Of a DNA stretch of 64,000 nucleotides, positions 34,073-63,177 are shown piece after piece (within the stretch, counting starts at the first letter, position 1; every line of letters starts with the position of its first letter). A program made the position numbers and the translations under genes. Source of the DNA: a virus. Under the pieces are notes generated by a model. That model did no database searches. It was not told where the DNA came from and was given only the letters and a program-made list of their open reading frames with translations. Location: positions 1 to 64,000 of the IMG/VR virus record IMGVR_UViG_3300048592_000418; one strand, 5' to 3'.

Positions 34073-34539
34073 TGAACGTTTCGCTCGAACTTCAGCGCGG
34101 AAAGGCCGGCGAACATTTTGTGTGCTGCGATCTGATTCGCCAAGGATTCAGCGCGTTCCTTGCCGATCAGGGATTGCCCTATGACGTGCTCGTTGACACT
34201 GGCACAAAGATTTTCCGCATGCAGGTAAAGACAACCGGCGGACTCGTGAGCTTGCCGCGGGCGCCGAACATTTACCGATTCGGAACACGGAGAGCAAAAG
34301 GCGGGATTTCGGTTCCGTCTCAATCGTCCGCAGATTTTTGGGCTTTCGTCGCTTTGGATATTTACGCCGTCGCATACATCCCGGCGTCTCAAATGCTCGC
34401 GAGAAGCGGATCGATGAAGCAGACAGTCGATTTCAAAAGCCGGCTGATTACATACACCGGCCGCGTATATTCAAACGGCGCCGTGCGAACGCCGGCGTGG
34501 GGAAAGCACCTTCAGGATTTTGGAAAATTCCAGCCATGA
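34072..34539 (+). CDS. PD-(D/E)XK endonuclease (homing-type)
   Basis: RGKAGEHFV...PYDVLVD...RMQVKT; lower GC. Confidence 0.8.
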   Translation: MNVSLELQRGKAGEHFVCCDLIRQGFSAFLADQGLPYDVLVDTGTKIFRMQVKTTGGLVSLPRAPNIYRFGTRRAKGGISVPSQSSADFWAFVALDIYAVAYIPASQMLARSGSMKQTVDFKSRLITYTGRVYSNGAVRTPAWGKHLQDFGKFQP

Positions 34540-35078
34540 AAAAATTCAACGTTGTGCTGGCAGATCCAGCATGGACCTACCGCGATAAGGCGAACGCCGG
34601 GAAGCGCGGGGCATCGCACAAATATGGCGTGATGACGCTCGAACAAATTTGTGCGCTTCCGGTGCAATCCATTGCAGCCGAAAACTGCGTTTTGTTTCTT
34701 TGGGCAGTTCCGCCGATGCTTCCTGACGCGTTCAGAGTGATCGAATCATGGGGTTTCAAATACAAGACAATCGGCTTTTGGTGGGCGAAGCGTAACAAAA
34801 AAGCGAACACGCCGTTTTTCGGCATGGGGCATTGGACGCGCGCGAACGGAGAACCGTGCTTGCTCGCGATTCGCGGGAAGCCGAAGCGAGTGAACGCCGG
34901 CGTCAGTCAATTCATTTGGCACCGGATTGCGCGGCATAGTCAGAAGCCGGACGAGACGCGCCGGCGGATTGTTCGACTGATGGGTGACGTTCCGCGCGTG
35001 GAACTTTTCGCGCGCGAGAACCCGCCGGGCTGGGACGTTTGGGGCAATCAGTGCGAAGCGACGGTCAAACTGACGTGA
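34536..35078 (+). CDS. MT-A70 family adenine methyltransferase
   Basis: VVLADPAW, LFLW, WGFKYKT, GMGHWTRANGEPCL, HSQKP, RVELFARE, GWDVWGNQ. Confidence 0.93.
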   Translation: MKKFNVVLADPAWTYRDKANAGKRGASHKYGVMTLEQICALPVQSIAAENCVLFLWAVPPMLPDAFRVIESWGFKYKTIGFWWAKRNKKANTPFFGMGHWTRANGEPCLLAIRGKPKRVNAGVSQFIWHRIARHSQKPDETRRRIVRLMGDVPRVELFARENPPGWDVWGNQCEATVKLT

Positions 35079-44483: not shown

Positions 44484-44725
44484 CGGAAGCCGAACCTGTC
44501 CTTCGCATGCCGGAACACCGGGCGCGCGTCCATCGCTACCGGCGCGCCGGCGGAACGCGTCAGGAATGGCGCTGTGCGGCCGGCTGCGGCTTTCACGCGG
44601 CCGGAAGCACGGAAGGCGATGCACTGTTTAACATGCGCCAGCATTTCGACGGGAAAACGTGCTGCGCTCTCACAACGGGCATGAAGGCGACGGGCCGATT
44701 TATGCCACCCGCGAGCTTCCAATGA
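44480..44725 (+). CDS. Small Cys-containing hypothetical protein
   Basis: ATGA-coupled ORF. Confidence 0.55.
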   Translation: MTEAEPVLRMPEHRARVHRYRRAGGTRQEWRCAAGCGFHAAGSTEGDALFNMRQHFDGKTCCALTTGMKATGRFMPPASFQ

Positions 44726-45228
44726 AGAACGAGTGCGTTTTTTCACCGTGCCGCGGCTGGCGTTACACGCTCGAACACGTGATCGAAGAAGCTCCGCCGC
44801 TGATCGCCGCTCGGCGCATGCAATGGATCGGGCTGAATCCGAGCACGGCGGACGAGAACGAGCTGGACAACACGCTTCGTCGCGTCCGCGCGTTCTCACT
44901 CGCGGCCGGATTCGGCGGGTTCATCATGACGAACGTGTTCGCATGGCGCGCGACGAAGCCGGCGGACATGAAGAAGCAGCCGGATCCCATCGGGCCGGAG
45001 AACGACGCTTGGCTGATGCGCGTCGCCGAGCGCTGCGAAGCTCACGTTGCATGCTGGGGAGGCATCGCGAATTTCCCGCGCGCTCTCCGGCCGCGGGCGG
45101 CGACTGTGCGGCTGATGTTCTCGCGCGCGAATCGGCCGTTGCTGTGCCTGAAGATTGCCGCGGACGGATCGCCGTGGCATCCGCTTTACGTTGACGGCGA
45201 CACGCCGCTTAAACCCTACGTGATATGA
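44722..45228 (+). CDS. DUF1643 family protein
   Basis: FSPCRGWRYTL, IGLNPSTAD, NVFAWRATKP, IGPENDAWL, ACWG, PWHPLY. Confidence 0.92.
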   Translation: MKNECVFSPCRGWRYTLEHVIEEAPPLIAARRMQWIGLNPSTADENELDNTLRRVRAFSLAAGFGGFIMTNVFAWRATKPADMKKQPDPIGPENDAWLMRVAERCEAHVACWGGIANFPRALRPRAATVRLMFSRANRPLLCLKIAADGSPWHPLYVDGDTPLKPYVI

Positions 45229-45473
45229 AAACGGTGAAGATCCTTTCGTCTCGAAGCACGATGGACGGCGAAGAACGTCGCGCGCTCGCACTCGCCGAAG
45301 CGCTCGGCGTCGTTGCGACGAAGGCGAGGAAAAAGGCGCGCGACATAATTCCGATTGCGTGCGTTGAAGTCGCGAAGCGCTTCCCGGCCGGGACTGATTT
45401 CAGGAAGGATCTCACGTCGCGAGCTGAAGCGCGTCAGCTTGTCGAACAGCTTCAACGCGCGACAAAATCATGA
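45225..45473 (+). CDS. Hypothetical protein
   Basis: ATGA-coupled ORF. Confidence 0.55.
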   Translation: MKTVKILSSRSTMDGEERRALALAEALGVVATKARKKARDIIPIACVEVAKRFPAGTDFRKDLTSRAEARQLVEQLQRATKS

Positions 45474-46003
45474 TGAACGAAAACGAACACTTGCTGACCG
45501 TGCTCGGCGAAGAAGGCGGCGAAGTCGCCAAAGAATGCGCGAAGGCGCTGCGCTTCGGCATTGCCGACAAGCTGACGCTGGATCCGGAAGGGCCGCGCGG
45601 GACGGAAGGTCCGACGAACGCGGAAAAGATCGTTGCCGAGCTGAACGACTTGCTCGGCGTCGCGCGCATGCTTGTTTCCCGCGGCGTCATCCCGGCGGGC
45701 TGGGAAAGCGAGGCGCGCCAGCAGCGGAAGATCCGGCGCGTGATCCAATACATGAATTACGCTGTCAGGGTGGACGCGCTCCGCGATTTTACGGTTCGCG
45801 ACGCAATCGAAGTTGAAGCGCTTCCCATCGCGCCGGGCGCGTTGACGACGCGGACCGGCGACAAGATCACGCACGTCGGAATGGACGTGCTCGGCATTCA
45901 TGCCGGCGAAGACGATTGCGCATGCATCGCGGACACGAACGGCACGCACTGGGCAACGGGCGACAAAGACGGCCGCAAGGTCCGCGTGCGCGTTCAGAAC
46001 TGA
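45470..46003 (+). CDS. MazG-like nucleotide pyrophosphohydrolase domain protein
   Basis: LGEEGGEVAKECAKALRFG...AELNDL. Confidence 0.7.
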   Translation: MMNENEHLLTVLGEEGGEVAKECAKALRFGIADKLTLDPEGPRGTEGPTNAEKIVAELNDLLGVARMLVSRGVIPAGWESEARQQRKIRRVIQYMNYAVRVDALRDFTVRDAIEVEALPIAPGALTTRTGDKITHVGMDVLGIHAGEDDCACIADTNGTHWATGDKDGRKVRVRVQN

Positions 46004-46013
46004 GTTTTTCACC

Positions 46014-46232
46014 ATGAACACAATCGCAAAGCAGCTTGTCGCGGACATGGGCGCCGCGTTGATCGGCCGTGAGATTCACACGATTCCGTTCGGCGCATAT
46101 CCCGGCGGAGTCGCGAAGGTGACGGAGCTGACGCCGGATCCGCAGGCGCCGGAAATCGTCATGCAAGTCGAACACCCGACGTTCGGATCCATCGGCGTGT
46201 TCGAGGACGAACCCGTTGAACTCGCTTCATGA
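46014..46232 (+). CDS. Hypothetical protein
   Basis: ATG 46014, coupled to the next gene. Confidence 0.6.
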   Translation: MNTIAKQLVADMGAALIGREIHTIPFGAYPGGVAKVTELTPDPQAPEIVMQVEHPTFGSIGVFEDEPVELAS

Positions 46233-47146
46233 AGTCTGAAACGGGCGGGAAGAAGGTCGCGGAATTCGTTTTCGCATACAAGGGACCGGAGACGCAGCGC
46301 GCGCCGGAAGGCGAGCACGCGGAACCCGATGAAGACAGGAAGCCGCTTCCGCTCGTCCGCGATCAGAAATGCCGGATCGCCGTTTACGTCGTCTCGAAGC
46401 TGAAGGAAACGGATTCGCCACCCCATGAAACCGGCGAGTCATATTTCCGTCTGGAATGCGACGCGCCGAAGATGCGGCTCGAAGGAACGGACATCGAACT
46501 TTTGAGGAAGGAAGCGTTCGGCCGGTGCAATGAGCATTACGCGACGAAATGGGAACCCTACTTCATCGTTGAAGTTCGGCGCATCGGATTCTCGAACGGC
46601 TACGGGACGGATCTGGATTTTTGCTATCGCGAATGCTGGAAGGGAACCGCGCATGACGGGACGCTTTTACTGAAGGATCGCCACTGGGGAGAGCGTGACG
46701 AAAAGATCAGCGCATGGCCGGGCGAATTCCGGGACCGCGAAGGCAAGGTGATCGCGTGCATCCCGAAGACGCCGGCGAACAAGGTCGCGCTGGAACAGTT
46801 CACCGCGAAGATTGATCAGATTCGCGGCGCGCTCGCCGACATGCTGCGGCCGGAACTGATCATGCATACGCTTTTGAATCAGAATCAGCTCGCGCTTCGC
46901 GCGCCGAAGACGGCGCCGGCCGAATACGTGACGCACGCGCCAGTTCCGAACGAGATCACGGAGGAAATGATCGCACAGGTGACGGAGGCGATCCGCACTT
47001 CGGGGAAGGCGCACATTCACACGGCATTCGTTCAGCGGCGTTTGAAAATCGGATGGCTGCGCGGTCAGCGCGTGATTGAAGAGCTGAAGAAGCGATCCAT
47101 TCTCGGCGACGAAACAGCGGCCGGTTTTATTATTCTTGCATCATGA
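46229..47146 (+). CDS. Hypothetical protein with C-terminal FtsK gamma-like winged helix
   Basis: EEMIAQVTEAIRTSGKA..TAFVQRRLKIGWLRGQRVIEELKKRSILG. Confidence 0.75.
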   Translation: MKSETGGKKVAEFVFAYKGPETQRAPEGEHAEPDEDRKPLPLVRDQKCRIAVYVVSKLKETDSPPHETGESYFRLECDAPKMRLEGTDIELLRKEAFGRCNEHYATKWEPYFIVEVRRIGFSNGYGTDLDFCYRECWKGTAHDGTLLLKDRHWGERDEKISAWPGEFRDREGKVIACIPKTPANKVALEQFTAKIDQIRGALADMLRPELIMHTLLNQNQLALRAPKTAPAEYVTHAPVPNEITEEMIAQVTEAIRTSGKAHIHTAFVQRRLKIGWLRGQRVIEELKKRSILGDETAAGFIILAS

Positions 47147-47705: not shown

Positions 47706-48186
47706 TCGCTTTCTCGAAATCCACGAAGCGGAGCTGAACGCGAAGACGGCCGCGGAGCTGAAGCGGGACGCATGGGCCGGCGACGCGCTGCTTCGCGCGG
47801 CCGTCACGATTATCGTGATCGCGCTCGAACCGAAGGACGCGCAGCGGCGGAACTGGATCGTTTGCCAAGCCGTGAGCAATGAACACATGGCGATTTGTTG
47901 CCGCTCGTTCATGCCGCGCTCGCCGGCGGGACTGAAGCAGAGCACGGCGTAAAACCGCTATCGCGAAGACGTTCACCGACACGGGACGCGGCTCGAAGCG
48001 GCTGTGCTTTACGAATACCGGCGCCGCGGCGGGGCGGAACACGGCGGCATCACGGCCGCGATTGAGATTGCGCGATTCCTGATCTCGAAGACGTGCTTTG
48101 CCCGGACGAACGAAGCGGTAACTGTCCCGATTGACAACACGGCTTTGGCTGCTCTGACTGCCGTGCATGACGCCGAAACGAGCTGA
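47674..48186 (+). pseudogene. Mini-RNase III-like gene interrupted by in-frame TAA (47950-47952)
   Basis: AWAGDALL...AVSNEHMA...STA*NRY...GTRLEAAVLYEYRRRGG, all in one frame. Confidence 0.65.
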
Positions 48187-48805
48187 CGGAATTCCAGTCC
48201 ACTGCGCGCACTCGAAGCTGGTTGAGATCGGCACGTTAAAGCCGCATCCGAAGAATCCCAACACACATCCCGAGCGGCAAGTGAAGTTGCTCGCGAAGGT
48301 GATCAAGCTGAACGGATGGCGTCGCGCCATCGTCGTGTCAGACCGGAGCGGATACATCGTGAAGGGACACGGCACGCTGATGGCCGCGCAGCTCGCGAAG
48401 CTGAAGGAAGTCCCCGTTGACGTTCAGCACTACGAAGACGACGAAGCGGAGATCCGCGATCTGATCGCCGACAACCGGATCCCGGAATTGTCCTATCGTG
48501 AAAACCGCAGTGTCGTCGCGCTGCTTCAGCAGCTCGAAGCGAAGGGACAGGACATCGAATCGGCCGGCTACGCGAACGACGAACTTCAGGCATTGATCGC
48601 GACGCTCGAAGCGAACGTGACGGACGGCGCGCAACGCGCGGGCCGGCGCACGCACAACGAAGCGGACACGATGCTAGTTCTCGGACCGTATCGCGTGAAG
48701 ATCCCGCGGGCGGATTTCGCGAGCTGGCACGAAAAGATCCGTCAGCAAGTCGGCTTCAAAGCTGAAGACGTTCACGCGGAAATCCGGCGCCGGCTGTCCC
48801 TCTGA
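48167..48805 (+). CDS. ParB/Srx N-terminal domain protein
   Basis: LKPHPKNPNTHPERQVKLLAKVI..NGWRRAIVV...IVKGHG...LIADNRIPELS. Confidence 0.9.
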   Translation: MTPKRADGIPVHCAHSKLVEIGTLKPHPKNPNTHPERQVKLLAKVIKLNGWRRAIVVSDRSGYIVKGHGTLMAAQLAKLKEVPVDVQHYEDDEAEIRDLIADNRIPELSYRENRSVVALLQQLEAKGQDIESAGYANDELQALIATLEANVTDGAQRAGRRTHNEADTMLVLGPYRVKIPRADFASWHEKIRQQVGFKAEDVHAEIRRRLSL

Positions 48806-50331
48806 TGAAGCTCGTTCCCGTCAAACTGCTGACGCCGGCGGCATACAATCCGCGCGTCGTTGATCCCGAACGGCTGGCAATGGTCCGGCTGTCGCTGCGG
48901 AAGCTGGGCTGGCTTCTTCCCGTGTTCGCGACGGAGGAAGGCGAGATCCTGAGTGGGCATCAGCGCACGCACGAAGCCGCGGCGCTCGGATACACGCAAG
49001 TTCCCGTTCGGCCGCTCCCACCCATGGCGACGGGGAAGCTGAAGGCGCTGAACATCCTGTTCAATCGTTCCACGAACGACATGGACATTGACGCCGTTCC
49101 GGCGGAGCTGAAGGCGCGCATTTCCGCGGAGGACGTGCGCAAGCTCGCCGCGGCGCTCCCGGATCACCCGATCAGCTCGTTCCCGTGCATGCACGCAAAC
49201 CGGGTGGAGATCGGGCCGCTCGTGAAGGCGAACGCCGGCCGCTGGATTCCCTACGCATACACGGTCGCGAAGTCGCTCGCCGCGCAGGGGATCACGATGC
49301 CGTTGATCGTGGGGCCGGATGACGTGGTGATCAACGGCATCGGCCGGTTGCAAATGCTCGCCGAGCGGAAGGAAGAAACGGCGGAAGCGATTTACCTGCG
49401 CGCGGAGCAAGCGGAGTTCGCGCGGCTGATGCTGAACTTCCTTTCGATGGATTTCGACCTGAAGGCGAAATATGCGGATCTTCTGCGTTACGGCAGTTTT
49501 CGCCGGCTGCGGCGGCAGCGCACCGAACTGGGACGCGGCTTCGTCTTCGCGATCACCGGGAACCGGGCCGCGCGTCATTTCGACATCACGGACGCGGCAT
49601 CGCGCGAGCGCTGGATCGCCGAGCACGGCCGCAACGTGCTGGACTTCGGCGCCGGACACCTGACGGAAACGAACCTGCTTCGCGCCGTTGGCGTGGAATG
49701 CACGCCGTTCGAGCCGTATCGCGTGAACCCGGACCGGGAGGAAATCGACAAGGCGGAATCGCTGCGCGTCGTCCGCGAATTCCTCGCCGCAGTGGAGAGC
49801 AAGCGCGAGTTCAGCAGCATCTTCATCAGCTCCGTCCTGAACTCCGTTCCGTTCGAGGAAGATCGGCGCGCCATCGTGACGATTCTGCGCGCATGCGCCG
49901 GCCGGCGGACGAAGGTTTACGCCGTCGCCAGCAGCGATCAGCAACGCGGGTTGAAAAACATGGGGAAGAAGTTCCTGAATCAGCGTTCGGAGCAATACGG
50001 CTTCATGCTCGCGGGTTACGAACCGAACGTGATCGTCGGCGAGCTGGCGACGAAGCCGAAAGCGCAGAAATACCACACGCCGGACGAGTTCCACGCGCTG
50101 TTCCGGACCGGATTCGGCCGCGTGTCCGTGAAGTATGACGGGGAAGGCGGCGCGAACATCAGCGCGATTGCCTGCGACCCGATGCCGTTCCGCTCGAAGG
50201 CCGATTTCGCGCAGCTCGCCGCGGCGCTGGCGTTCGAGTTTGATCTTCCATACCCGGACGGCTCGCGCATGGGCATGGCGGAGGAAGCGAAGGCGGCGTT
50301 CGGCGAACGGCTGGGGCAGATCATCGCATGA
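48805..50331 (+). CDS. Tandem ParB-like domains fused to SAM-dependent (amino-type) methyltransferase
   Basis: PAAYNPR...ILSGHQR; second ParB-like VINGIGRL; VLDFGAG; FISSVLNSVPF. Confidence 0.85.
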   Translation: MKLVPVKLLTPAAYNPRVVDPERLAMVRLSLRKLGWLLPVFATEEGEILSGHQRTHEAAALGYTQVPVRPLPPMATGKLKALNILFNRSTNDMDIDAVPAELKARISAEDVRKLAAALPDHPISSFPCMHANRVEIGPLVKANAGRWIPYAYTVAKSLAAQGITMPLIVGPDDVVINGIGRLQMLAERKEETAEAIYLRAEQAEFARLMLNFLSMDFDLKAKYADLLRYGSFRRLRRQRTELGRGFVFAITGNRAARHFDITDAASRERWIAEHGRNVLDFGAGHLTETNLLRAVGVECTPFEPYRVNPDREEIDKAESLRVVREFLAAVESKREFSSIFISSVLNSVPFEEDRRAIVTILRACAGRRTKVYAVASSDQQRGLKNMGKKFLNQRSEQYGFMLAGYEPNVIVGELATKPKAQKYHTPDEFHALFRTGFGRVSVKYDGEGGANISAIACDPMPFRSKADFAQLAAALAFEFDLPYPDGSRMGMAEEAKAAFGERLGQIIA

Positions 50332-50483
50332 ACACGAGCTTCCGCATTCCCGGATGGAGTTTTCACGTTCCGATCCCAGTGGGAACGCGCGCAAGCGTCT
50401 GCATCGTCCGCACGAAGAAGCAGAAGCCGAAAATCTATCTGGACGGGAAGCCGGTGAAGGCGCGCGTCCGGCGCACGACATGA
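50328..50483 (+). CDS. 51-aa basic peptide (absent from ORF track)
   Basis: MNTSFRIPGW...; ATGA overlaps at both ends. Confidence 0.55.
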   Translation: MNTSFRIPGWSFHVPIPVGTRASVCIVRTKKQKPKIYLDGKPVKARVRRTT

Positions 50484-50707
50484 CCCCGGCCGCAACGCAT
50501 TTCTGGCGATGGAAGACGCGGCTCCCGGAGCGCAAGGGAACCGGCTGCATCATGCTCGCGCGGGGCCGGCTGAATTCATGCCTGATCCAGTTCGTCGCCG
50601 ACGGCTGGAAGGTGATCACGTCACGCAATGCCGTTCGCAAAGTCGTCGACACGGACAAGCGAAAACAGAACAACGACTTGCACGCCAAAACATCCGCAAA
50701 ACTGTGA
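50480..50707 (+). CDS. Small hypothetical protein
   Basis: WRWKTRLPERKG..C.MLARGRLNSCLIQF.DG.KVITSRNAVRK. Confidence 0.65.
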   Translation: MTPAATHFWRWKTRLPERKGTGCIMLARGRLNSCLIQFVADGWKVITSRNAVRKVVDTDKRKQNNDLHAKTSAKL

Positions 50708-51432
50708 ATTCGTCGACACCCGAAGCCGAAACAGGCGTTCCCGCTCCGCGCGGGCGCTGGGAATTCAACACAGCCGTCGCCGAAAAGTTCGACGAACACG
50801 TTCGGAAGAGCGTTCCGGATTACGAGGCGATCCAGTTCACGGCCGCGGCGCTGTGCGATTGGTTCGCACCGGCCGGCGGAACCGTCATGGACTTTGGATG
50901 CGCGACGGGGCAGACGTTGGGCATGATCGCCGGCACGAATGCCGGGAAATCGCTCCGGCTGGTGGGTTACGATGGCAGCGAAGCCATGATCACGAAGGCG
51001 CAGAACATGCGCGCGAAGGGCATCACGTGGCAACAGGGCTGGCTTCCCGGCTGTCTCGAAATCGGCCGCGATCAGCCGATCAACTTCGCGCTGTTCCTTT
51101 ACACGCTGCAATTCCTGACGCCGGAGGACAGGGCGCGCACGCTGAAAGCGGCGGCGGACCGGCTGGCGCCGGGCGGCGCTCTGTTCGTGGTGGAAAAGGT
51201 CTTCGGCAGCACGCCAGCGTTCCACGATCTGACGAGTCAGCTATACGCGGAAATGAAGCTGACGAACGGGCTGACGCCGGATGAAGTGCAGGCGAAGGCG
51301 CGCAGCCTGCGCGGCGTGATGCATCCGCTGACCGTGGCGGAGAACGAGGCAGCATTCCGCGCGGCCGGGCTGACCCGGCACGAACTGATTTACCGGCGGC
51401 TGTCGTTCGCCGGATGGATCGTGACGAAATAA
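50704..51432 (+). CDS. cmoA: CmoA-like (carboxy-SAM synthase family) protein
   Basis: WEFNTAVAEKFDEHVRKSVPDY, DFGCATG, DGSEAMI, YTLQFL, LAPGGALFVVEK, KLTNG, SLRGVM. Confidence 0.85.
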   Translation: MNSSTPEAETGVPAPRGRWEFNTAVAEKFDEHVRKSVPDYEAIQFTAAALCDWFAPAGGTVMDFGCATGQTLGMIAGTNAGKSLRLVGYDGSEAMITKAQNMRAKGITWQQGWLPGCLEIGRDQPINFALFLYTLQFLTPEDRARTLKAAADRLAPGGALFVVEKVFGSTPAFHDLTSQLYAEMKLTNGLTPDEVQAKARSLRGVMHPLTVAENEAAFRAAGLTRHELIYRRLSFAGWIVTK

Positions 51433-52160: not shown

Positions 52161-52856
52161 ATGGCCGAAGAAGCGACAGTAAAACCGCCGATTGAACTGA
52201 CGGCCGCGCAGGCGCGCACCGTCCTGAAGGCGAATCGCGCCAACATCCCGAAGCACACGGCCGCGCTGCTGTCCAAGGTCGCGCGGAACAAACCCCTGAC
52301 GGACCGCGAGCGCGGACTGTTGGAAGGCGTTATTGTGAACGCAGAACGGAAACGGCGCGAGGGACAAAACGGGACAAAACGGCGCGCAGGCGCGGACAGA
52401 ATGGGCCGGACGGAGCGGGATTTTGCCGTCGCTGTGCGTCGCCGGCGCGTTCTCGAATGCCGGATGCGCATGCTTCCCGTCCGGGACATCGCCGCAGAGC
52501 TGGGAATCGACAAAAAGACCGTCTGCGCGGATCTGAAGGCGCTGGAAAAGGAGTTCGCAGCGTTCGCGCCGACGGAGAACCGGGCGTTGCTCGCACAGCA
52601 GATCGCGCAAATGGACATCCTGATCGGCGAAAACACGGCGATGGCCGCGAAGTTCACGGCGCCGTCGGCGAAGGCGGCGTTCCTGCGCAACGCAGCGCAG
52701 GCGATGCAGGACAAGACGCGGCTGCTGGAAAACGTCGGCGTGATCAAAGTCGTCCCGAAGGTGATTCACGCGGCCGGGCCGAACGACGGGCCGATCCCCA
52801 TCGAAACGACGGCGAAGATCGTGCTTCTGCCGGCGCTGGAAGAAGGGAAGCAGTGA
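52161..52856 (+). CDS. terS: Terminase small subunit (putative)
   Basis: HTH VRDIAAELGIDKKTVCADLK; C-terminal HAAGPNDGPIPIE. Confidence 0.7.
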   Translation: MAEEATVKPPIELTAAQARTVLKANRANIPKHTAALLSKVARNKPLTDRERGLLEGVIVNAERKRREGQNGTKRRAGADRMGRTERDFAVAVRRRRVLECRMRMLPVRDIAAELGIDKKTVCADLKALEKEFAAFAPTENRALLAQQIAQMDILIGENTAMAAKFTAPSAKAAFLRNAAQAMQDKTRLLENVGVIKVVPKVIHAAGPNDGPIPIETTAKIVLLPALEEGKQ

Positions 52857-53128: not shown

Positions 53129-53307
53129 ACCAAAAACGGTTCAACCCGATGCGGTTTGCCGTTGCATGCGCGGCGCTTGGCGCTTTGCTGGCGCTCGTCT
53201 TCTTCACTTGCTGCGGCGAACGCCTGTGCGCATGGCTGACCGATTGGATCGATCTGCGCATTGATCGCGTTGGCCGATGGCTGAACAACGAACCCAAACG
53301 AAAATGA
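53125..53307 (+). CDS. Small membrane protein
   Basis: FAVACAALGALLALVFF. Confidence 0.5.
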   Translation: MNQKRFNPMRFAVACAALGALLALVFFTCCGERLCAWLTDWIDLRIDRVGRWLNNEPKRK

Positions 53308-55049
53308 ACGGAATGCACATCGACACGAGGCGCGAGGGATTTCAGATGACGCGCGAACGCCGGCGCTCGAACGCGGAATGGCCGGCATGGCTGAACGCAG
53401 CATGGAACACCCCGATTGACGAACCGGGCGCGGTTTACCCGGACCCGAATGATCCGGATCGCTCGAACGGGCGCGTTTGCGTCAATGTCCACCCGGACGG
53501 CTGTTCGCGGCAGATAGTCGAATGGAACGAATGGATCATTCGCGAGGCTGACGGCCGGCTGTGGGTGACGGACAGCAGCGATCCGACGATTGCGAACATC
53601 GAAATCGCGGCCGGTCAGGAGCTGAAGCAAGAGCGGCGCGCATACATCGCCGAGAAATTGCTTCAAACGGCGCCGGAATTGGCCGCTGAACTGGACACGC
53701 TCCGCGCCGAGTTGGCCGAAGCAAAATCGAATTACATCGGCGCATGCCAGACAATCGCGGCGATGCATGCCGCGGCCGTGGGTGGAATTCGGGGACCGAA
53801 CCGCGGCGTCGTTGAAGACGTGGCAGACGTTGCCGAGCGGCTTCGCTTGCTCGAACTCTCGCGCACCGATCCCGAAAAAAGTCTCGCCGCGCACGCGATC
53901 CAGTTGAACGCGACGCTGCGCAAGACGCAGGAAGAACTTCAGACCGCGAACGCGCTGCTGGACGGGCTGAAACGGCCGAACCCGGCGGCAATCGATCAAG
54001 TCGTGGAACGGCTTTGGGGGAAGGCTGGCACGAACACGCCGGACACATTCCGGGATGAAGCGCGGCGGATCCTGCGCGAGCACTTCGGCGAGTTCGGCAC
54101 GAATGATCGCGCCGAGCTGGAAAAGCTCCGCGGCTACTATCGCCAGATCGGCGCGACGCTCGGCGATGACGCAGTGATCAGCCGAGTCCGGGCACAGGCG
54201 GACACGATCAACCGGCTGCGCATGGAGCTTTCCGCGCTCGAAACGCTGAAGACGGACACTGAAGCGCACGCGGACAGGCTGGCGTCTGCGCTCGGATGGC
54301 TCGCGAGCACGTGCGGGACGCAGGTTCCGGCCGTGGTGGACGCGCTGCGAGCGCACGCCATGCGACGCGGCGCCGATTTTCAGGACGCCGGGCCGATCCA
54401 GTCGCCGGCGCTGATTCCCGCGCGAAAGCTCCCGGAGGGAACGGCGTTGCTGTATCCGGGCGTTCATCAGGTTCGCGGCGTTATCTGCGCGCGTGACGTG
54501 ATCGTGACGCCGGCGAAGATTCCGGACCGGACGAAGCTCGTGATCTTCGATGGCGTGCTTTTCCACGTCTGGCAGGCGTTCGCGACGGACGCCGGGACTG
54601 TGCTGCTCGCGGCGCCGGATTCTGCCGTGATGGAAACGGACGACGAAGCGGACGCAGCGGAGGCAATGCGGCTCGCGGGAATGGCTGCGACGGATGAACA
54701 CGTGATCGCGCGGCTGCGCGCGTTCCCGCGTCCGCGGCACGTCGGCATTCAGCCGAAGCCGCTCCCGACGCATCCGGTTGACGCGATGAAGGCGATCGGC
54801 ATTCCCATGGATCCGGACGTGGAACGCGATCTTCGTGCGCACTGCGACGCACCTGTTGACGTTTCGGCGATGGACGGCGGGCCGAAGCGAATCGGCGACG
54901 TGCTCGAACAGTGCGGCCGGGAACACGCGGAGGCGATGCAGCGGATTGAAATTCAGCGCGCGCAGTTGAACCCGAACCCGCCGGCGGAACTGGCTCGGCA
55001 GGCGATGGCGAAAGCGCGCGATATAGTCAGCGAAGGGAATCACCCATGA
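53304..55049 (+). CDS. Multi-domain coiled-coil hypothetical protein
   Basis: EGFQMTRERRRSNAEWPAWLNAAW N-terminus; central heptads. Confidence 0.7.
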   Translation: MNGMHIDTRREGFQMTRERRRSNAEWPAWLNAAWNTPIDEPGAVYPDPNDPDRSNGRVCVNVHPDGCSRQIVEWNEWIIREADGRLWVTDSSDPTIANIEIAAGQELKQERRAYIAEKLLQTAPELAAELDTLRAELAEAKSNYIGACQTIAAMHAAAVGGIRGPNRGVVEDVADVAERLRLLELSRTDPEKSLAAHAIQLNATLRKTQEELQTANALLDGLKRPNPAAIDQVVERLWGKAGTNTPDTFRDEARRILREHFGEFGTNDRAELEKLRGYYRQIGATLGDDAVISRVRAQADTINRLRMELSALETLKTDTEAHADRLASALGWLASTCGTQVPAVVDALRAHAMRRGADFQDAGPIQSPALIPARKLPEGTALLYPGVHQVRGVICARDVIVTPAKIPDRTKLVIFDGVLFHVWQAFATDAGTVLLAAPDSAVMETDDEADAAEAMRLAGMAATDEHVIARLRAFPRPRHVGIQPKPLPTHPVDAMKAIGIPMDPDVERDLRAHCDAPVDVSAMDGGPKRIGDVLEQCGREHAEAMQRIEIQRAQLNPNPPAELARQAMAKARDIVSEGNHP

Positions 55050-55867: not shown

Positions 55868-56103
55868 TGCCGCTCGCGCGAATGCATGTCATCCCAGTCG
55901 GCGGAGCGGAGCCGGTTCACGTCGCTTCGCCGAACTGCTGGTGTTATCCCGCGGTGAAGACGCTCGAAAACCCGGCGCCGGCATATCATCCGGACATGAT
56001 TGTTCACAACGCCGACGATAAGCGCGAGCGTTGGGAACAGGTGACAGGACGGCCGCGCGATCCCGGCGCGAAATGGGTGAACGTCTGCGAAGAAGTCCCG
56101 TGA
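55867..56103 (+). CDS. Small metal-binding protein
   Basis: HV.P...H....CWC.P....IVHN..D.RE. Confidence 0.6.
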   Translation: MPLARMHVIPVGGAEPVHVASPNCWCYPAVKTLENPAPAYHPDMIVHNADDKRERWEQVTGRPRDPGAKWVNVCEEVP

Positions 56104-56894
56104 GGAACATCCGCCGGCACAATTTGGACGAACCCCGGCCGCGACACGTCGAAAAGGCCGCGCGATCACCCGAAACCGCCGCGCGACGGCCGGAAAAGGT
56201 CGCGCAACCCGTGGAAACGGCACCGCGAACGGCCGCGGAGCCGGTGCGATACCCTCCGGAATTCGTCGGACCGCCGGCGCTCGAAGGCTACGCTCGCGCG
56301 CATTTCACGCGCTGGGGATGGCGCACGGAGATCCCGCGGGACAGGTTCGCGCGGATCGGCAAATGGGGCGAAACCGGGATTCAGGGAATCGGGCCGAACG
56401 GCCGGATCCTGTGCCTGTGCGGCTGCGGCCGGGAAGTTCCCGTGTCGAAACGGCACACGACGAAGTTCCGGCCGGGCTGCTGGGAGGAATGGGCGAAGGT
56501 TCACGACGCGAGCACGGTCCGACGGCACGTCTGGAAGCGGGACAAGGGCGTTTGCGCGGAATGCAGGGTGGACACCGAAGCGCTGAAGCGCGAGACGGCC
56601 GCGAAGCTCGGCGAAGACGTGCGGCGCAACTGGGACGGGAATTTTTACTTCGTCGGCTTCAGCCGCGCGGCGCGCCGGGCCCACCATATCCCGCCGGGAT
56701 TCCCGGACGTTGATCGCGCATGGTGGGAAGCCGATCACCGCGTCCCGGTGATCGAAGGCGGCGGGCTGTGCTCACTCGAAGGCATGCGGACGCTGTGCAT
56801 CCCCTGTCACAAAAAGGCGACGGCCGCGCTTGCTGCTAGACGCGCCGCGGCGCGCGTTCCACCCTCCGCGGAATGCCAGCTTCAACTTTCCTGA
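56100..56894 (+). CDS. HNH endonuclease
   Basis: RDKGVCAEC...WEADHRVPVIEGGG...RTLCIPCHKKAT. Confidence 0.88.
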   Translation: MRNIRRHNLDEPRPRHVEKAARSPETAARRPEKVAQPVETAPRTAAEPVRYPPEFVGPPALEGYARAHFTRWGWRTEIPRDRFARIGKWGETGIQGIGPNGRILCLCGCGREVPVSKRHTTKFRPGCWEEWAKVHDASTVRRHVWKRDKGVCAECRVDTEALKRETAAKLGEDVRRNWDGNFYFVGFSRAARRAHHIPPGFPDVDRAWWEADHRVPVIEGGGLCSLEGMRTLCIPCHKKATAALAARRAAARVPPSAECQLQLS

Positions 56895-58807: not shown

Positions 58808-58962
58808 GCGCACGAAGGTTGACAGGCTCGGCATCCGCCGGCGTTCTCTCACGAGACGCCGGCGGCGTCATTTATGCGCGGCGCGCGAACCATACATGAC
58901 GAAATGATCACGAGAACCGAAGCGAACGCGTGCGCGTTCGAGTCATCCGCGCATCCTGTCTG

Positions 58963-60345
58963 ATGGTGGCACATGCGCCAATTTCGACGGAGCCGGTGAC
59001 GGTCTGGAAGCCGAACAGCGGTCCGCAATACAAGTTTCTTGCGTGCGCTGCGCGTGAAGTGCTTTACGGCGGAGCCGCCGGCGGCGGGAAAACTGACGGG
59101 CTGCTGATGGGAGCGATCCGCTTCCGCGAGAACCCGAACATGCGGGCAATCGTGTTTCGGAAAACGTTCCCGATGCTGTCAAAGATCATCGACAGATCGA
59201 AGGCGCTTTATCCGCACCTCGGCGCGCGTTACAACGAATCGAAGCACGTCTGGCGCTTCCCGGCCGGCGGATTCGTGCGCTTCGGCAATCTCGACAAACC
59301 CGGCGCGGAAGAGAACTACCAAGGCGAAGACTTCACTTACATCGCGTTTGACGAGCTGACGCAGTGGGCAACGGCGAAGCAATACACGTATCTGCGATCA
59401 CGTCTGCGTTCGAGCGCGGGAAGCGGGATCTCGCACCTGATGATTCGCGGCGCGTGCAATCCCGGCGGGCGCGGGCATGGGTGGGTGAAGTTGCACTTCG
59501 GGATCGATGACGCCGGCAACGCGGCCGATTTCATTGACACCGGCACGCCGGATCAGCCGGGAACCGGATTCCGTCGCGTGTTCATCCCCGCTCGGCTGCG
59601 CGACAATCCGTTTTTGTCCGGCACGGATTACGAGCGCGAGCTGATGGCGCTCCCGCACGATCTGCGCGTCGCGCTGTTAGATGGCCGCTGGGATGTCGTC
59701 GCCGGCGCCGTGTTCGGGCATCACTGGAACCCGCGGCTTTGGGATGACAAAGACACGCCGGGCAACGTCTGCGACGCGTTCGAGATTCCGCAGCACTGGA
59801 AGATCTGGCGCGGAGCTGACGACGGCTTCAATGCGCCGGCGTGCTGTCTATGGTTCGCGCAGAACGATGATCGGATCTTCGTGGTGGATGAACTTTACCG
59901 GGAAGGCATGTCCCCGGAAGCATTCGCGGAAGAAGTCCTGAAGCGGGACAATCAGCTTCGGGCCGGCGGCAGGATCACGGGCGTCATTGATCCGGGCGCG
60001 TTCGCAAAGACGGGCATCACGCACAAGCAAGGGCAGTCCCGCGGGCAAATCATGAACGCGTGCGGCTGTCACTGGGAGGAAGCCGAGAAAGGGCCGCATT
60101 CGCGCGTGAATGACGTTTCGCTTGTCGCAACGTCGCTCTCGAAGGTTTTACCGGACGGCCGGCGGAAAGTGATCGTGTTCCGGCGCTGCAAAAACCTGAT
60201 CCGAACGATTCCGGTTCTCCCGCGTGACGACGTGAACCCGGAAGACGTGGACAGCGATTCGGAAGATCACGCTTATGACGCTTTTCGTTACGGGTTGCAA
60301 TGGCGCCGGCGGGAGATCAAACAGGGGAAGCTCTCCGGTCTGTAA
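58963..60345 (+). CDS. terL: Terminase large subunit
   Basis: YGGAAGGGKT, FDELTQ, ACNPGGRGHGWVK, DNPFL, LLDGRWD, GADDG, DHAYDAFRY. Confidence 0.97.
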   Translation: MVAHAPISTEPVTVWKPNSGPQYKFLACAAREVLYGGAAGGGKTDGLLMGAIRFRENPNMRAIVFRKTFPMLSKIIDRSKALYPHLGARYNESKHVWRFPAGGFVRFGNLDKPGAEENYQGEDFTYIAFDELTQWATAKQYTYLRSRLRSSAGSGISHLMIRGACNPGGRGHGWVKLHFGIDDAGNAADFIDTGTPDQPGTGFRRVFIPARLRDNPFLSGTDYERELMALPHDLRVALLDGRWDVVAGAVFGHHWNPRLWDDKDTPGNVCDAFEIPQHWKIWRGADDGFNAPACCLWFAQNDDRIFVVDELYREGMSPEAFAEEVLKRDNQLRAGGRITGVIDPGAFAKTGITHKQGQSRGQIMNACGCHWEEAEKGPHSRVNDVSLVATSLSKVLPDGRRKVIVFRRCKNLIRTIPVLPRDDVNPEDVDSDSEDHAYDAFRYGLQWRRREIKQGKLSGL

Positions 60346-60359
60346 ACCGCTTCCCGAAA

Positions 60360-62027
60360 ATGCCTGTTTCAACCTTTCATCCGCTATACATGAAGGCCGT
60401 TCCGAAGTGGGAACGGATTCGCACGGTTCTCGAAGGCGAAGACAAAGTGAAGGAAGCCGGCGACAAGTATTTGCCGCGGCTGTCCGCGCAGACTGATGAC
60501 GAATACAACGCTTACAAAATGCGCGCGCAGTTCTTCAATGCGACCGGGCGCACGCATGGCGGTTTGCTGGGGCTGATTTTCGGACAGGATCCGAACGTGA
60601 TCGTCCCGAAGGACATCGAAGAATGGCTGGACGACGTGACGCTGACGGGGATGACGTTCTTCGGATTCTCGAAGCACGTCACCGATCAGATTCTCGGACC
60701 CGGCCGCTTCGGGATCTACGTGGATTTTGATCAGGACGCCGGCCGGTCATACTTGGTCGGATACACGACGGAACAGATCATCAACTGGCGCACGGAGCGG
60801 CGGAAGGGGAAGCAGTTCGTGACGATGGTCGTTCTGAAGGAATCCGTCGAATCGGTTCAGGCGGATCCGTTCGTCGCCGAAGTTCAGGAACGTTATCGCG
60901 TGCTTTTGCTCGAACCCGCGGACGGCGGGAACGGCAAGCCGATCTTCAAAGTGCGGCTGTATCAGAAGCGGCCGAACGCGGCGCCGGGGAAGGAATCGCC
61001 GACGAAGCGGGCGCGCACAGCTCGAACGGCGCGACTCGGCAACGATGACGAGCTGATGAAGGAAGCCGCGGCGGCGGCGAAAAAGCCGTCAGAAGTTCCG
61101 ACGGAAGGCGACTTCGAGATCACGGAGATCGTCCCGGTGATCCGCGGAACACCGCTCGAATTTATTCCGTTCACGTTCGTCGGCGTGACGCGCAACGAAG
61201 CGGATCCGGAGCGTCCACCCTTGGAAGACGTGGCAACGGTGAACCTGTCCCACTATCGGACGAGCGCGGATCTCGAACACGGCCGGCACTTCACCGGACT
61301 GCCGACGGCATGGGTTGCGGGATTTGACACGGACGAAGAGCTTCGGATCGGCAGCGGCACGGCATGGATCAGCAAGGATGCGAGCGCGAAGGCCGGCTTT
61401 CTCGAATTCACCGGGCAAGGGCTGAAGGCGCTCGAAGTCGCGCTGGAACAGAAAGAGAAGCAAATGGCCGTTCTCGGCGCGCGCTTGCTCGAACAGCAGA
61501 AGAAGGAAGCCGAGACGGCCGAAACGCTGAAGCTGCGGCAGGCTGGCGAATCGTCCGTGCTCGCGTCCATCGCAACGACGGTAGGCGAAGCGCTGACAAT
61601 GGCGCTGCGGTTTCTCGACTACTGGCGCACGGGCGGCGCGCTCGAAACCGATCCGCAGAAGATCAGCGCGGAAATGAACACCGAATTCATTGACGCGTCG
61701 CTGACTTCGCAGGAAGTCACCGCGCTCGTTTCGGCGTGGCAGGGCAAAGCGATCTCGCATCTCACCTTGCTTCACAATTTCGCGCGCACCGGAATTCTCC
61801 CGCCGGACATTTCGCCGGAAGACGAGCAAGCTCGGATCGATGACGAAGCTCCGTCGCTTACCGGCGACGCGTTGCCGCTGGATCCCGATGACGGCACTGT
61901 TCCGGCGACGCAGCGCGACGCGCAGACGGCCGCGGCGAAGAAAAAGGCCGCGGACGAAGAAAACGAACGCATGATGCGCGAAAAGGAAATGCAGATGAAG
62001 GCGAAGCCGGGCGCATTCAAAAAGTAG
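60360..62027 (+). CDS. Portal protein (DUF4055 type)
   Basis: HPLY...YLPRL...YKMRAQFFNATGRT...PPLEDVATVNLSHYRTSADLEHGRHFTGLPT; follows terL. Confidence 0.9.
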   Translation: MPVSTFHPLYMKAVPKWERIRTVLEGEDKVKEAGDKYLPRLSAQTDDEYNAYKMRAQFFNATGRTHGGLLGLIFGQDPNVIVPKDIEEWLDDVTLTGMTFFGFSKHVTDQILGPGRFGIYVDFDQDAGRSYLVGYTTEQIINWRTERRKGKQFVTMVVLKESVESVQADPFVAEVQERYRVLLLEPADGGNGKPIFKVRLYQKRPNAAPGKESPTKRARTARTARLGNDDELMKEAAAAAKKPSEVPTEGDFEITEIVPVIRGTPLEFIPFTFVGVTRNEADPERPPLEDVATVNLSHYRTSADLEHGRHFTGLPTAWVAGFDTDEELRIGSGTAWISKDASAKAGFLEFTGQGLKALEVALEQKEKQMAVLGARLLEQQKKEAETAETLKLRQAGESSVLASIATTVGEALTMALRFLDYWRTGGALETDPQKISAEMNTEFIDASLTSQEVTALVSAWQGKAISHLTLLHNFARTGILPPDISPEDEQARIDDEAPSLTGDALPLDPDDGTVPATQRDAQTAAAKKKAADEENERMMREKEMQMKAKPGAFKK

Positions 62028-62049: not shown

Positions 62050-63177
62050 ATGCCGACGAAACGAAACCTTCACGAAAAGCTCGCGGACAAGATCACCGCG
62101 CATCAGATCACGCTCGAACGGCTGAAGGCCGGCGAAAAGCAGAGCGTGATCGCCATGCTGCGCGATCTCGAAAAGTCGCTGATTCTCGAACTCGAAAAGT
62201 TGGACGTTACCGGCGCGGCGTCTCGCTACCATCAGGCGCGGCTCGCGAAGCTGCTTCAGTTCGCGAAGGAAACCATTCGCGGATCGTATCGAGGAATCCG
62301 TGACGATCAGCGGGAAGCGCTGCAAGGGCTGGCGAAGCTGGAAGACAGCTTCGTTCGCCGGGCCGTGAACGGGACAATCGGCGTTGATCTGATGACGGTG
62401 ACGCTTTCGGCCGAAACGCTGAAGACGCTCGCGAGTGATACGCTGATCATGAAGGCGCCGTCTGCCGAATGGTGGAGCCGGCAAGCCGGGGACACGCTTC
62501 AGCGCTTCACGGATAACATGCGCGACGGCGTTTTGCGCGGCGAACCCACCACGGAGCTTGTGCGGCGCGTGCGCGGCCGGCGGGAAAATCAATTTGCCGA
62601 CGGCATCATGCAAACGAGCTATCGGAACGCCGAAGCGCTCGTTCGGACATCCGTTCAGACCGTCGCGAATGAAGCGCGACTGGAAACCTACGCGGCGAAC
62701 GCCGACGTGATCAACGGGACGCAATGGGTTTCGACGCTGGACAGGCGCACAACGAAGATCTGCATCGCACTCGACGGGAAGGTTTGGGATCGCGAGCTGA
62801 AACCCATCGGACACAAGCACAAGTTCCCCGGTCCAACGGCGCACTGGGGATGCCGGAGCACTCAGATCCCCGTGATGAAAACGTTTCAGGAACTCGCCGG
62901 CGCGAAGGAAACGCGTTCGTTGGTGGAGCAAGCGACGGAACAGAGGAAGGACATGCTTCGCGCGTCCATGGACGGACAGGTCGCCGGCGTCCAGACGTTC
63001 GACGAATTCCTGAAGCGGAAGGATGGCAAATATCAGGATCAGCTTTTGGGTCGCGAGCGCGCGAAGCTCTGGCGCGACGGCAAGATCACTGCGGACGATC
63101 TGACGAATCAGGACAATCGGCCGCTGACCGTGAAGCAGCTTCAGAAGCTCGCCGAGCGGAGAACGGGCGGCGGATGA
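62050..63177 (+). CDS. Minor head protein (MuF / SPP1 gp7-like)
   Basis: AEALVRTSVQ, WVSTLDRRTTKICIALDG, GPTAHWGCRS. Confidence 0.92.
   Translation: MPTKRNLHEKLADKITAHQITLERLKAGEKQSVIAMLRDLEKSLILELEKLDVTGAASRYHQARLAKLLQFAKETIRGSYRGIRDDQREALQGLAKLEDSFVRRAVNGTIGVDLMTVTLSAETLKTLASDTLIMKAPSAEWWSRQAGDTLQRFTDNMRDGVLRGEPTTELVRRVRGRRENQFADGIMQTSYRNAEALVRTSVQTVANEARLETYAANADVINGTQWVSTLDRRTTKICIALDGKVWDRELKPIGHKHKFPGPTAHWGCRSTQIPVMKTFQELAGAKETRSLVEQATEQRKDMLRASMDGQVAGVQTFDEFLKRKDGKYQDQLLGRERAKLWRDGKITADDLTNQDNRPLTVKQLQKLAERRTGGG

Follow-up and report, generated by a model that had tools for sequence, protein, structure and literature searches.

A CmoA-linked ParB-transferase fusion cassette in a phage genome as a candidate carboxy-SAM-dependent DNA carboxymethylation system

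To our knowledge, natural DNA carboxymethylation with carboxy-S-adenosylmethionine (carboxy-SAM) has been known only since December 2025, and from one enzyme type (CmoX) with one product (5-carboxymethylcytosine). Here, a five-gene cassette comprising a CmoA homologue and a ParB-fused transferase was analyzed at positions 48167-51432 of a 64,000-nucleotide stretch of viral DNA (positions 1 to 64,000 of the IMG/VR record IMGVR_UViG_3300048592_000418, hereafter the window), which is the first part of a phage genome that is complete at 102,004 bp and carries direct terminal repeats. In the described system, carboxy-SAM is produced by CmoA of Synechococcus phage S-B43 and consumed by the C5-methylase homologue CmoX, which thereby creates 5-carboxymethylcytosine in DNA; the AsnS-like ligase CmoY amidates the carboxymethyl group to the glycine amide (Yang et al., Nat Commun, December 2025; PMC12783734). 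ParBc-domain proteins were found to be frequent near CmoX clusters, with no role assigned to them, and a preliminary search by the same authors detected no adenine-N6 or cytosine-N4 carboxymethyltransferase tied to CmoA (PMC12783734). A survey of ParB folds lists fusions of ParB with Methyltransf_23 as predicted DNA methyltransferases, notes their enrichment in phages and prophages, and reports that ParB-CTPase folds bind CTP, ATP or GTP (PMC12704722). Moreover, the phage ParB protein ParB176 activates the thymine dioxygenase 5mYOX176 and is needed on double-stranded DNA (dsDNA) (PMC13229309).

We propose that the cassette constitutes a carboxy-SAM-dependent DNA carboxymethyltransferase system of a new type, a reading to which we assign a probability of about 0.55. 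In the first step, the CmoA homologue would turn S-adenosylmethionine (SAM) and prephenate into carboxy-SAM, as judged by its homology to the validated phage enzyme. In the second step, suggested by gene linkage only, the class-I domain of the fusion would use carboxy-SAM to carboxymethylate a base of the phage DNA after replication. The fusion would in this way take the role that CmoX has in S-B43, with an unrelated catalytic domain, while its ParB-CTPase-fold domain, the degenerate copy of that domain and the separate ParB protein may bring the enzyme to dsDNA or activate it there. The likely benefit would be that phage DNA is shielded from host restriction. The class-I domain is regarded as the transferase because of the linkage, its position and the lack of an alternative; phage DNA is regarded as the substrate because of the ParB domains, the CmoX precedent and the example of a thymine dioxygenase that is activated by a phage ParB specifically on dsDNA (PMC13229309). 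The new element is probably CmoA-dependent phage DNA modification with a non-homologous, ParB-fused transferase, the pairing of CmoA with CmoX being already known.

The five open reading frames (ORFs) of the cassette lie on the + strand and each is joined to the next by an overlap of 1 or 4 bases, read directly in the sequence as TGATG at 48803-48807, ATGA at 50328, ATGA at 50480 and GTGA at 50704; the five genes are translationally coupled. The first gene (48167-48805, +) encodes a ParB-like protein of 212 amino acids (aa) matched by phrog_620 (E 7e-31) and phrog_498 (E 6e-31), with a Pfam ParB_N score of 21.3 bits that lies below the cut-off of 26.3. The second gene (48805-50331, +) encodes the 508-aa fusion of a ParB domain, a ParB-like domain and a class-I transferase domain, and it overlaps through ATGA with a 51-aa ORF (50328-50483, +), for which neither a family match nor a relative in the 163 related loci was found and which appears to be lineage-specific. 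A 75-aa ORF (50480-50707, +) follows, bounded by the ATGA overlap at its 5' end and the GTGA overlap at its 3' end; it gave no Pfam or PHROG match and no relative in the related loci, and it stands where most relatives have a HAD-like phrog_32036 gene, to which it is not similar. The last gene (50704-51432, +) encodes the 242-aa CmoA homologue, a predicted carboxy-SAM synthase. Its start is most likely GTG 50704 rather than ATG 50509, because the 5' part of the long ORF beginning at 50509 overlaps the 75-aa ORF in another frame and because homologues start about 17 residues ahead of a conserved W-x-F. Thus, the elements named in a preliminary description of this DNA were all recovered: an overlap-coupled run opened by a ParB-domain gene, a double-ParB transferase with the motifs DFGAG and SSVLNSV, two small ORFs and a full-length CmoA homologue, with the qualification that the second ParB copy is degenerate and visible only by profile-profile comparison. 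At the DNA level, a search of the whole cassette against cultured phages returned a 125-bp ParB match only.

The fusion was found together with CmoA in most related genomes. Related loci were retrieved with an alignment query, a single-protein query having returned none. The fusion family, whose members number in the hundreds and come from phages and prophages of six or more bacterial phyla, comprises at least 755 proteins at E <= 1e-5 and was present in 346 IMG/VR stretches as well as in 172 stretches from the species representatives of the genome collection, the latter being prophages of Verrucomicrobiota, Alphaproteobacteria, Cyanobacteriota, Planctomycetota, Chloroflexota, Vibrio and others. 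Neighbourhoods were examined at 160 loci, namely 80 from IMG/VR and 80 genomic (prophage) loci. A CmoA profile detected a same-strand CmoA gene downstream of the fusion in 78 of the 80 IMG/VR loci, and one miss was cut off right after the fusion (78/79 informative); among the genomic loci, a CmoA-like gene was present in 68, nine were cut too short and three were truly without it (68/71 informative). Taken together, the fusion and a CmoA-like gene stand side by side in 146 of the 150 informative loci (~97%), and in 153 of 160 the fusion is immediately preceded by a ParB homologue. Clustering of the neighbouring ORFs yielded a core of ParB (153 loci), the fusion (159), a ~140-aa phrog_32036 protein (145) and CmoA (144). 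A C5-methylase-like ORF was nearby in only 9 of the 160 loci, no CmoY-like ligase was present in any of them, and phmmer with E. coli CmoB found nothing in the same set. The trio also occurs in cultured phages, namely Pseudomonas phage SM1 and about 12 relatives, Gordonia phage Evaa and Aeromonas phage HJ05; UF_RH6 and PaMx31 are among the Pseudomonas carriers. Co-occurrence of the three genes, which the preliminary description had suggested as a check, was therefore found both in the informative loci and in cultured phages, and the view that the fusion consumes the carboxy-SAM of the adjacent CmoA for DNA modification is supported by this linkage, by a gene position like that of CmoX and by the published system (PMC12783734).

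The linkage also bears on the alternative that the fusion is an ordinary SAM-dependent DNA methyltransferase, with CmoA acting separately, for example by raising host tRNA cmo5U modification via host CmoB or by draining or altering the host SAM pool. This would agree with the survey that lists ParB-Methyltransf_23 fusions simply as predicted DNA methyltransferases (PMC12704722), with the four loci in which the fusion has no nearby CmoA and with the fact that the carboxylate-binding residues of the fusion are candidates only. However, ~97% side-by-side linkage in phages of Pseudomonadota, Actinomycetota, Verrucomicrobiota, Cyanobacteriota and others, combined with translational coupling, is hard to explain on these terms; furthermore, the phage has neither a tRNA gene nor CmoB, and the CmoA of the proven system serves DNA modification. 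We consider a plain methylase unlikely.

Between the fusion and CmoA, about 145 of the 160 loci carry the ~140-aa phrog_32036 gene (e.g., L018:2305-2727 and L053:7497-7949 among the related loci), which the window lacks, having two unrelated small ORFs at that position. The product of the gene shows a HAD-like signature (a D-L-N-x-T start and invariant T, K and E-S-N) and weak matches to the NIF and PNKP phosphatase families.

The CmoA homologue matched TIGR00740 over positions 13-238 of 239, lid helices included (E 2.8e-29, 102.5 bits), the next family reaching E 1.6e-8; it also matched the CmoA structures of E. coli (4gek) and H. influenzae (1im8) in the PDB at E ~5e-19, and phrog_4752 at E 6e-54. 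The cofactor contacts of E. coli CmoA are Y39, D62, G64, D89, N132, E164 and R199 (PMC3663124). Equivalents of Y39, D62, G64, D89 and E164 are kept in the window protein, K198 also being invariant in the alignment, whereas N132 is replaced by Leu and R199 by Ala, with Arg at +1 and +4. The validated S-B43 CmoA has Leu at 132, Glu at 199 and Arg at +4. An A-K-A/Q-R-x-L/I-R-G motif is common to the CmoAs of the window, Streptomyces phage TurkishDelight and Staphylococcus phage vB-SscS-F1, the latter two being encoded in canonical CmoX/CmoY clusters. A quick maximum-likelihood analysis of 34 representatives, run as a short search with E. coli as root and single bacterial outgroup and giving a tree with several long branches, placed the window CmoA in a 15-member clade with S-B43, Staphylococcus phage F1 and TurkishDelight (Shimodaira-Hasegawa-like approximate likelihood ratio test, SH-aLRT, 97), and the fusion-linked CmoA of Evaa was sister to the CmoX-linked CmoA of TurkishDelight (support 95). 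Fusion-linked and CmoX-linked CmoAs interleave in this tree, which suggests that one cofactor-making lineage serves either transferase, as expected if both consume carboxy-SAM.

These comparisons make it very improbable that the product of the CmoA homologue is some SAM derivative other than carboxy-SAM, with the fusion transferring that other group. Such a reading could draw on the missing counterparts of N132 and R199 (E. coli CmoA numbering) in the alignment and on a score below the curated cut-off, but the validated S-B43 CmoA deviates alike (L132, E199, 115.6 bits), the CmoAs of canonical CmoX-CmoY clusters carry the AKAR-LRG motif of the window protein, and the window CmoA belongs to the same supported clade as S-B43. 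The caveat of the preliminary description, that LYTLQF and KARSL in place of the E. coli residues may point to another product, was accordingly not borne out: CmoX-linked CmoAs share the motif, and S-B43 CmoA is itself without N132 and R199.

Two further CmoA genes, of Erwinia phage pEa_SNUABM_22 (L004) and Alcaligenes phage Afa-NA1 (L001), are accompanied over a range of 6 kb by neither CmoX nor the ParB fusion. The genes next after CmoA in the Erwinia jumbo phages encode a DUF1611 protein and an AsnS-like ligase, and a D12-class adenine methylase lies at a distance of 5 kb; in Afa-NA1 a 439-aa D12-class methylase lies 2.5 kb from CmoA; these methylases or neighbours are possibly further partners for carboxy-SAM.

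The fusion aligned over residues 2-504 with positions 4-457 of the 458 in the profile of phrog_5475, a family without assigned function (E 1.9e-98). It is laid out as a ParB-CTPase-fold domain (aa 1 to ~110), a degenerate ParB-like domain (aa ~125-200), a helical linker, a class-I SAM transferase domain (aa ~262-460) and a C-terminal extension. In a profile search of the PDB, aa 3-144 matched Noc and Spo0J (E 8e-8 to 5e-6), and GHQR and FNR-TN are invariant in the first ParB domain. BLASTP between the first and second domains found no internal repeat; by profile-profile comparison (hhalign), residues 27-73 aligned with 154-200 (94% probability, E 1.2e-7), GIGR replacing GHQR. The structure predicted for residues 200-508 (predicted local distance difference test, pLDDT, 89.6; predicted template modelling score, pTM, 0.89) confidently indicates a class-I SAM-dependent transferase fold (Rossmann-like, seven strands) with an intact motif I (DFGAG) and an acidic ribose-binding residue, E303, after strand 2. 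The fusions of cultured phages are 35-42% identical to that of the window, yet they keep the same invariant residues, namely HQR, NR, R181, DFGAG, E303, N346..P349-F350, D353-R354, E406 and K419-x-Q-K422; the closest relatives listed (P0002 and P0003) show 74% identity. Of the invariant basic residues, R354, K419 and K422 are speculative candidates to hold the carboxylate of the cofactor. Besides the 500-aa form, an ESM Atlas search with residues 255-508 revealed shorter ParB fusions (377-476 aa) and stand-alone transferase domains of ~228-237 aa, the latter mostly viral; the family therefore exists in both split and fused form.

The best Foldseek matches of the transferase domain (E 1e-5 to 1e-4) were CcbJ, glycine/sarcosine N-methyltransferases, MtfA, ToxA and PsmD, which are small-molecule N- or C-methyltransferases, and its nearest structures were METTL6 (3-methylcytidine in tRNA, m3C), Trm9 and small-molecule N-methyltransferases; CmoB was not among the nearest folds. 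Two other identities were considered for the protein and rejected: a disguised CmoX, as there is no similarity to TurkishDelight CmoX and no PF00145, and, for its transferase domain, a CmoA paralogue, as hhalign aligned motif I only, with 14% probability. The structural neighbours somewhat favour a reading in which carboxy-SAM is used on a target other than DNA, whether RNA (tRNA or a phage transcript), a free nucleotide held on the ParB-CTPase fold, or a protein. The binding of CTP, ATP or GTP by ParB-CTPase folds (PMC12704722) and the HAD-like, phosphatase-type gene between both enzymes in most relatives point the same way. On the other hand, the ParB-domain partners of phage enzymes characterized so far act on DNA (PMC13229309), ParBc proteins accompany the CmoX DNA modification clusters, and the cassette lies beside packaging genes in most relatives, so that a target other than DNA seems quite unlikely to us.

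With DNA as the proposed substrate, the catalytic domain is unrelated to that of CmoX and the target atom is therefore probably a different one. We suggest tentatively, and at somewhat less than even odds, that the fusion is a natural DNA carboxymethyltransferase whose target is not cytosine C5 but some other atom, such as a ring or exocyclic nitrogen of A, C or G; this would be a base modification not yet seen in nature. Its ParB domains, binding nucleoside triphosphates, would then load the enzyme as a sliding clamp, so that modification extends over the whole genome. As most of the fold neighbours act on nitrogen and the N..PF following strand 4 is reminiscent of motif IV, an N-linked adduct can reasonably be guessed, N6-carboxymethyladenine being just one of the options. 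As the product proposed in the preliminary description, the latter is not supported, since the fold is without the signature of DNA amino-methylases: the (D/N/S)PP(Y/F/W) motif is absent from the fusion, the only Pfam match of which was a weak one to Methyltransf_23, and the invariant N346-S-V-P349-F350 that follows strand 4, although similar to motif IV of the amino-methylases, is one residue too long. Literature searches on natural N-carboxymethylated DNA bases in phages and on any DNA modification in Samunavirus phages returned nothing relevant.

The complete 102,004-bp genome gave no match to PF00145 (CmoX), Asn_synthase PF00733 (CmoY), PF08003 (CmoB) or PF01555, no PF02086 (D12) methylase and no tRNA gene. 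The absence of CmoB, tRNA genes and C5-methylases, previously stated for the window, thus holds for the whole genome, which leaves the fusion as the one CmoA-linked transferase. A single canonical DNA methylase, which had gone unmentioned before, was detected in the phage: a 180-aa MT-A70 methyltransferase 14 kb upstream of the cassette (34536-35078, +; Pfam E 9.8e-28), which with its ADPAW (DPAW) motif looks like an ordinary N6-adenine DNA methylase.

Several points weigh against carboxy-SAM-dependent DNA modification by the fusion. The chemistry of the cassette is a prediction from its genes. As modelled, the transferase domain appears most like small-molecule and tRNA methyltransferases and is without DNA-methylase motifs; a DNA substrate therefore rests on the ParB fusion and on analogy. 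The candidate carboxylate residues R354, K419 and K422 are placed in sequence, not in three dimensions. The CmoA homologue lacks R199 at the aligned position, and its 102.5 bits lie below the curated NCBIfam equivalog cut-off of 193.3; the validated S-B43 enzyme SpCmoA is likewise without R199 and reaches only 115.6 bits, and every phage CmoA tested falls under 193.3, so that this cut-off describes bacterial CmoA only. In the four informative loci with no nearby CmoA, the fusion keeps every invariant residue, which ruled these loci out as a natural experiment; they are compatible with the use of host carboxy-SAM and equally with plain SAM. Finally, the MT-A70 adenine methylase could in principle consume carboxy-SAM.

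With regard to packaging, the cassette had been placed just upstream of the small terminase gene terS, and this was not confirmed. The ORF at 52161-52856, which showed weak helix-turn-helix (HTH) matches only, could not be identified as terS: the terminases of the related loci do not match the genome, and the large terminase (TerL) of the window is of a different type. The genes for TerL (58930-60345, +), the portal (60300-62027, +) and a MuF-like head morphogenesis protein (62050-63177, +) start only ~7.5 kb after the cassette, with an HNH endonuclease gene (56031-56894, +) in the gap, and terS is probably one of the ORFs just before TerL. In most relatives, the cassette stands directly ahead of terS-like and gpA-type TerL genes, and in Evaa ahead of the terminase, whereas in SM1 unrelated genes follow it. 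A coupling to packaging, as previously suggested, is hence not supported as a rule, given the ~7.5 kb to TerL here and the unrelated genes in SM1.

An HTH protein of 230-325 aa follows CmoA in the window, SM1 and HJ05, directly in the latter two and after a 94-aa ORF in the window, and it is itself followed by a 590-650-aa protein without family match (53277-55049, +, in the window; L005:7465-9396; L007:4363-6321). These three large proteins are without detectable mutual similarity, and the shared gene order of the window, SM1 and HJ05 may be chance. The 94-aa ORF and the ORFs at 52161-52856 and 53277-55049 had no relatives in the 163 related loci and no informative family match. Upstream of the cassette lie genes for a DUF1643 protein (44659-45228, +), a MazG-like nucleoside triphosphate pyrophosphohydrolase (45470-46003, +; phrog_4856) and a protein with an FtsK gamma domain (46229-47146, +).

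If the proposal holds, a second, unrelated and widespread transferase for carboxy-SAM would exist, probably with a different modified base, adding new chemistry to the anti-restriction strategies of phages and a new enzyme scaffold for site-directed functionalization of DNA. It would also give a function to the phage-enriched ParB-Methyltransf_23 fusions. The cultured carriers, i.e., the Pseudomonas Samunavirus group, Gordonia phage Evaa and Aeromonas phage HJ05, make the cassette directly testable.

Phage Mu Mom, an enzyme of GNAT fold, makes N6-carbamoylmethyladenine. If adenine N6 were the target of the fusion, its product would be the acid form of the amide adduct made by Mom; this is a chemical analogy only, as neither window protein is related to Mom and the window has no amidoligase. 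With 5mYOX176 and ParB176, the cassette shares a phage ParB-like protein beside an enzyme of post-replicative DNA modification, a role proposed here for the fusion; there, the reaction is an iron/2-oxoglutarate-dependent (Fe/2OG) oxidation and ParB is separate, whereas here one separate ParB is accompanied by two ParB-type domains fused to the enzyme. The fusions of the ParB-fold survey (PMC12704722) are of the same architecture class, but that survey gives no function, cofactor or link to CmoA, and the linkage is the new element. The bacterial CmoA-CmoB pathway to tRNA cmo5U34 would resemble the cassette in having its donor made by a CmoA homologue and used by a class-I transferase of SAM fold that selects carboxy-SAM; in contrast, the phage is without PF08003 and tRNA genes, and its transferase bears ParB domains. 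The closest likeness is to CmoA-CmoX-CmoY of S-B43, with which the cassette shares a phage CmoA of the same clade, one or more ParB proteins, a SAM-fold transferase beside CmoA and the absence of CmoB. Unlike CmoX, the window transferase is without PF00145, the SPPC motif or sequence similarity to it and carries a Methyltransf_23-type class-I domain on two ParB-type domains; the window also lacks the CmoY ligase, and no further amidation is therefore expected. The gene order ParB, ParB, CmoX, amidoligase, CmoA of TurkishDelight nevertheless parallels that of the window, where the fusion sits at the place of CmoX.

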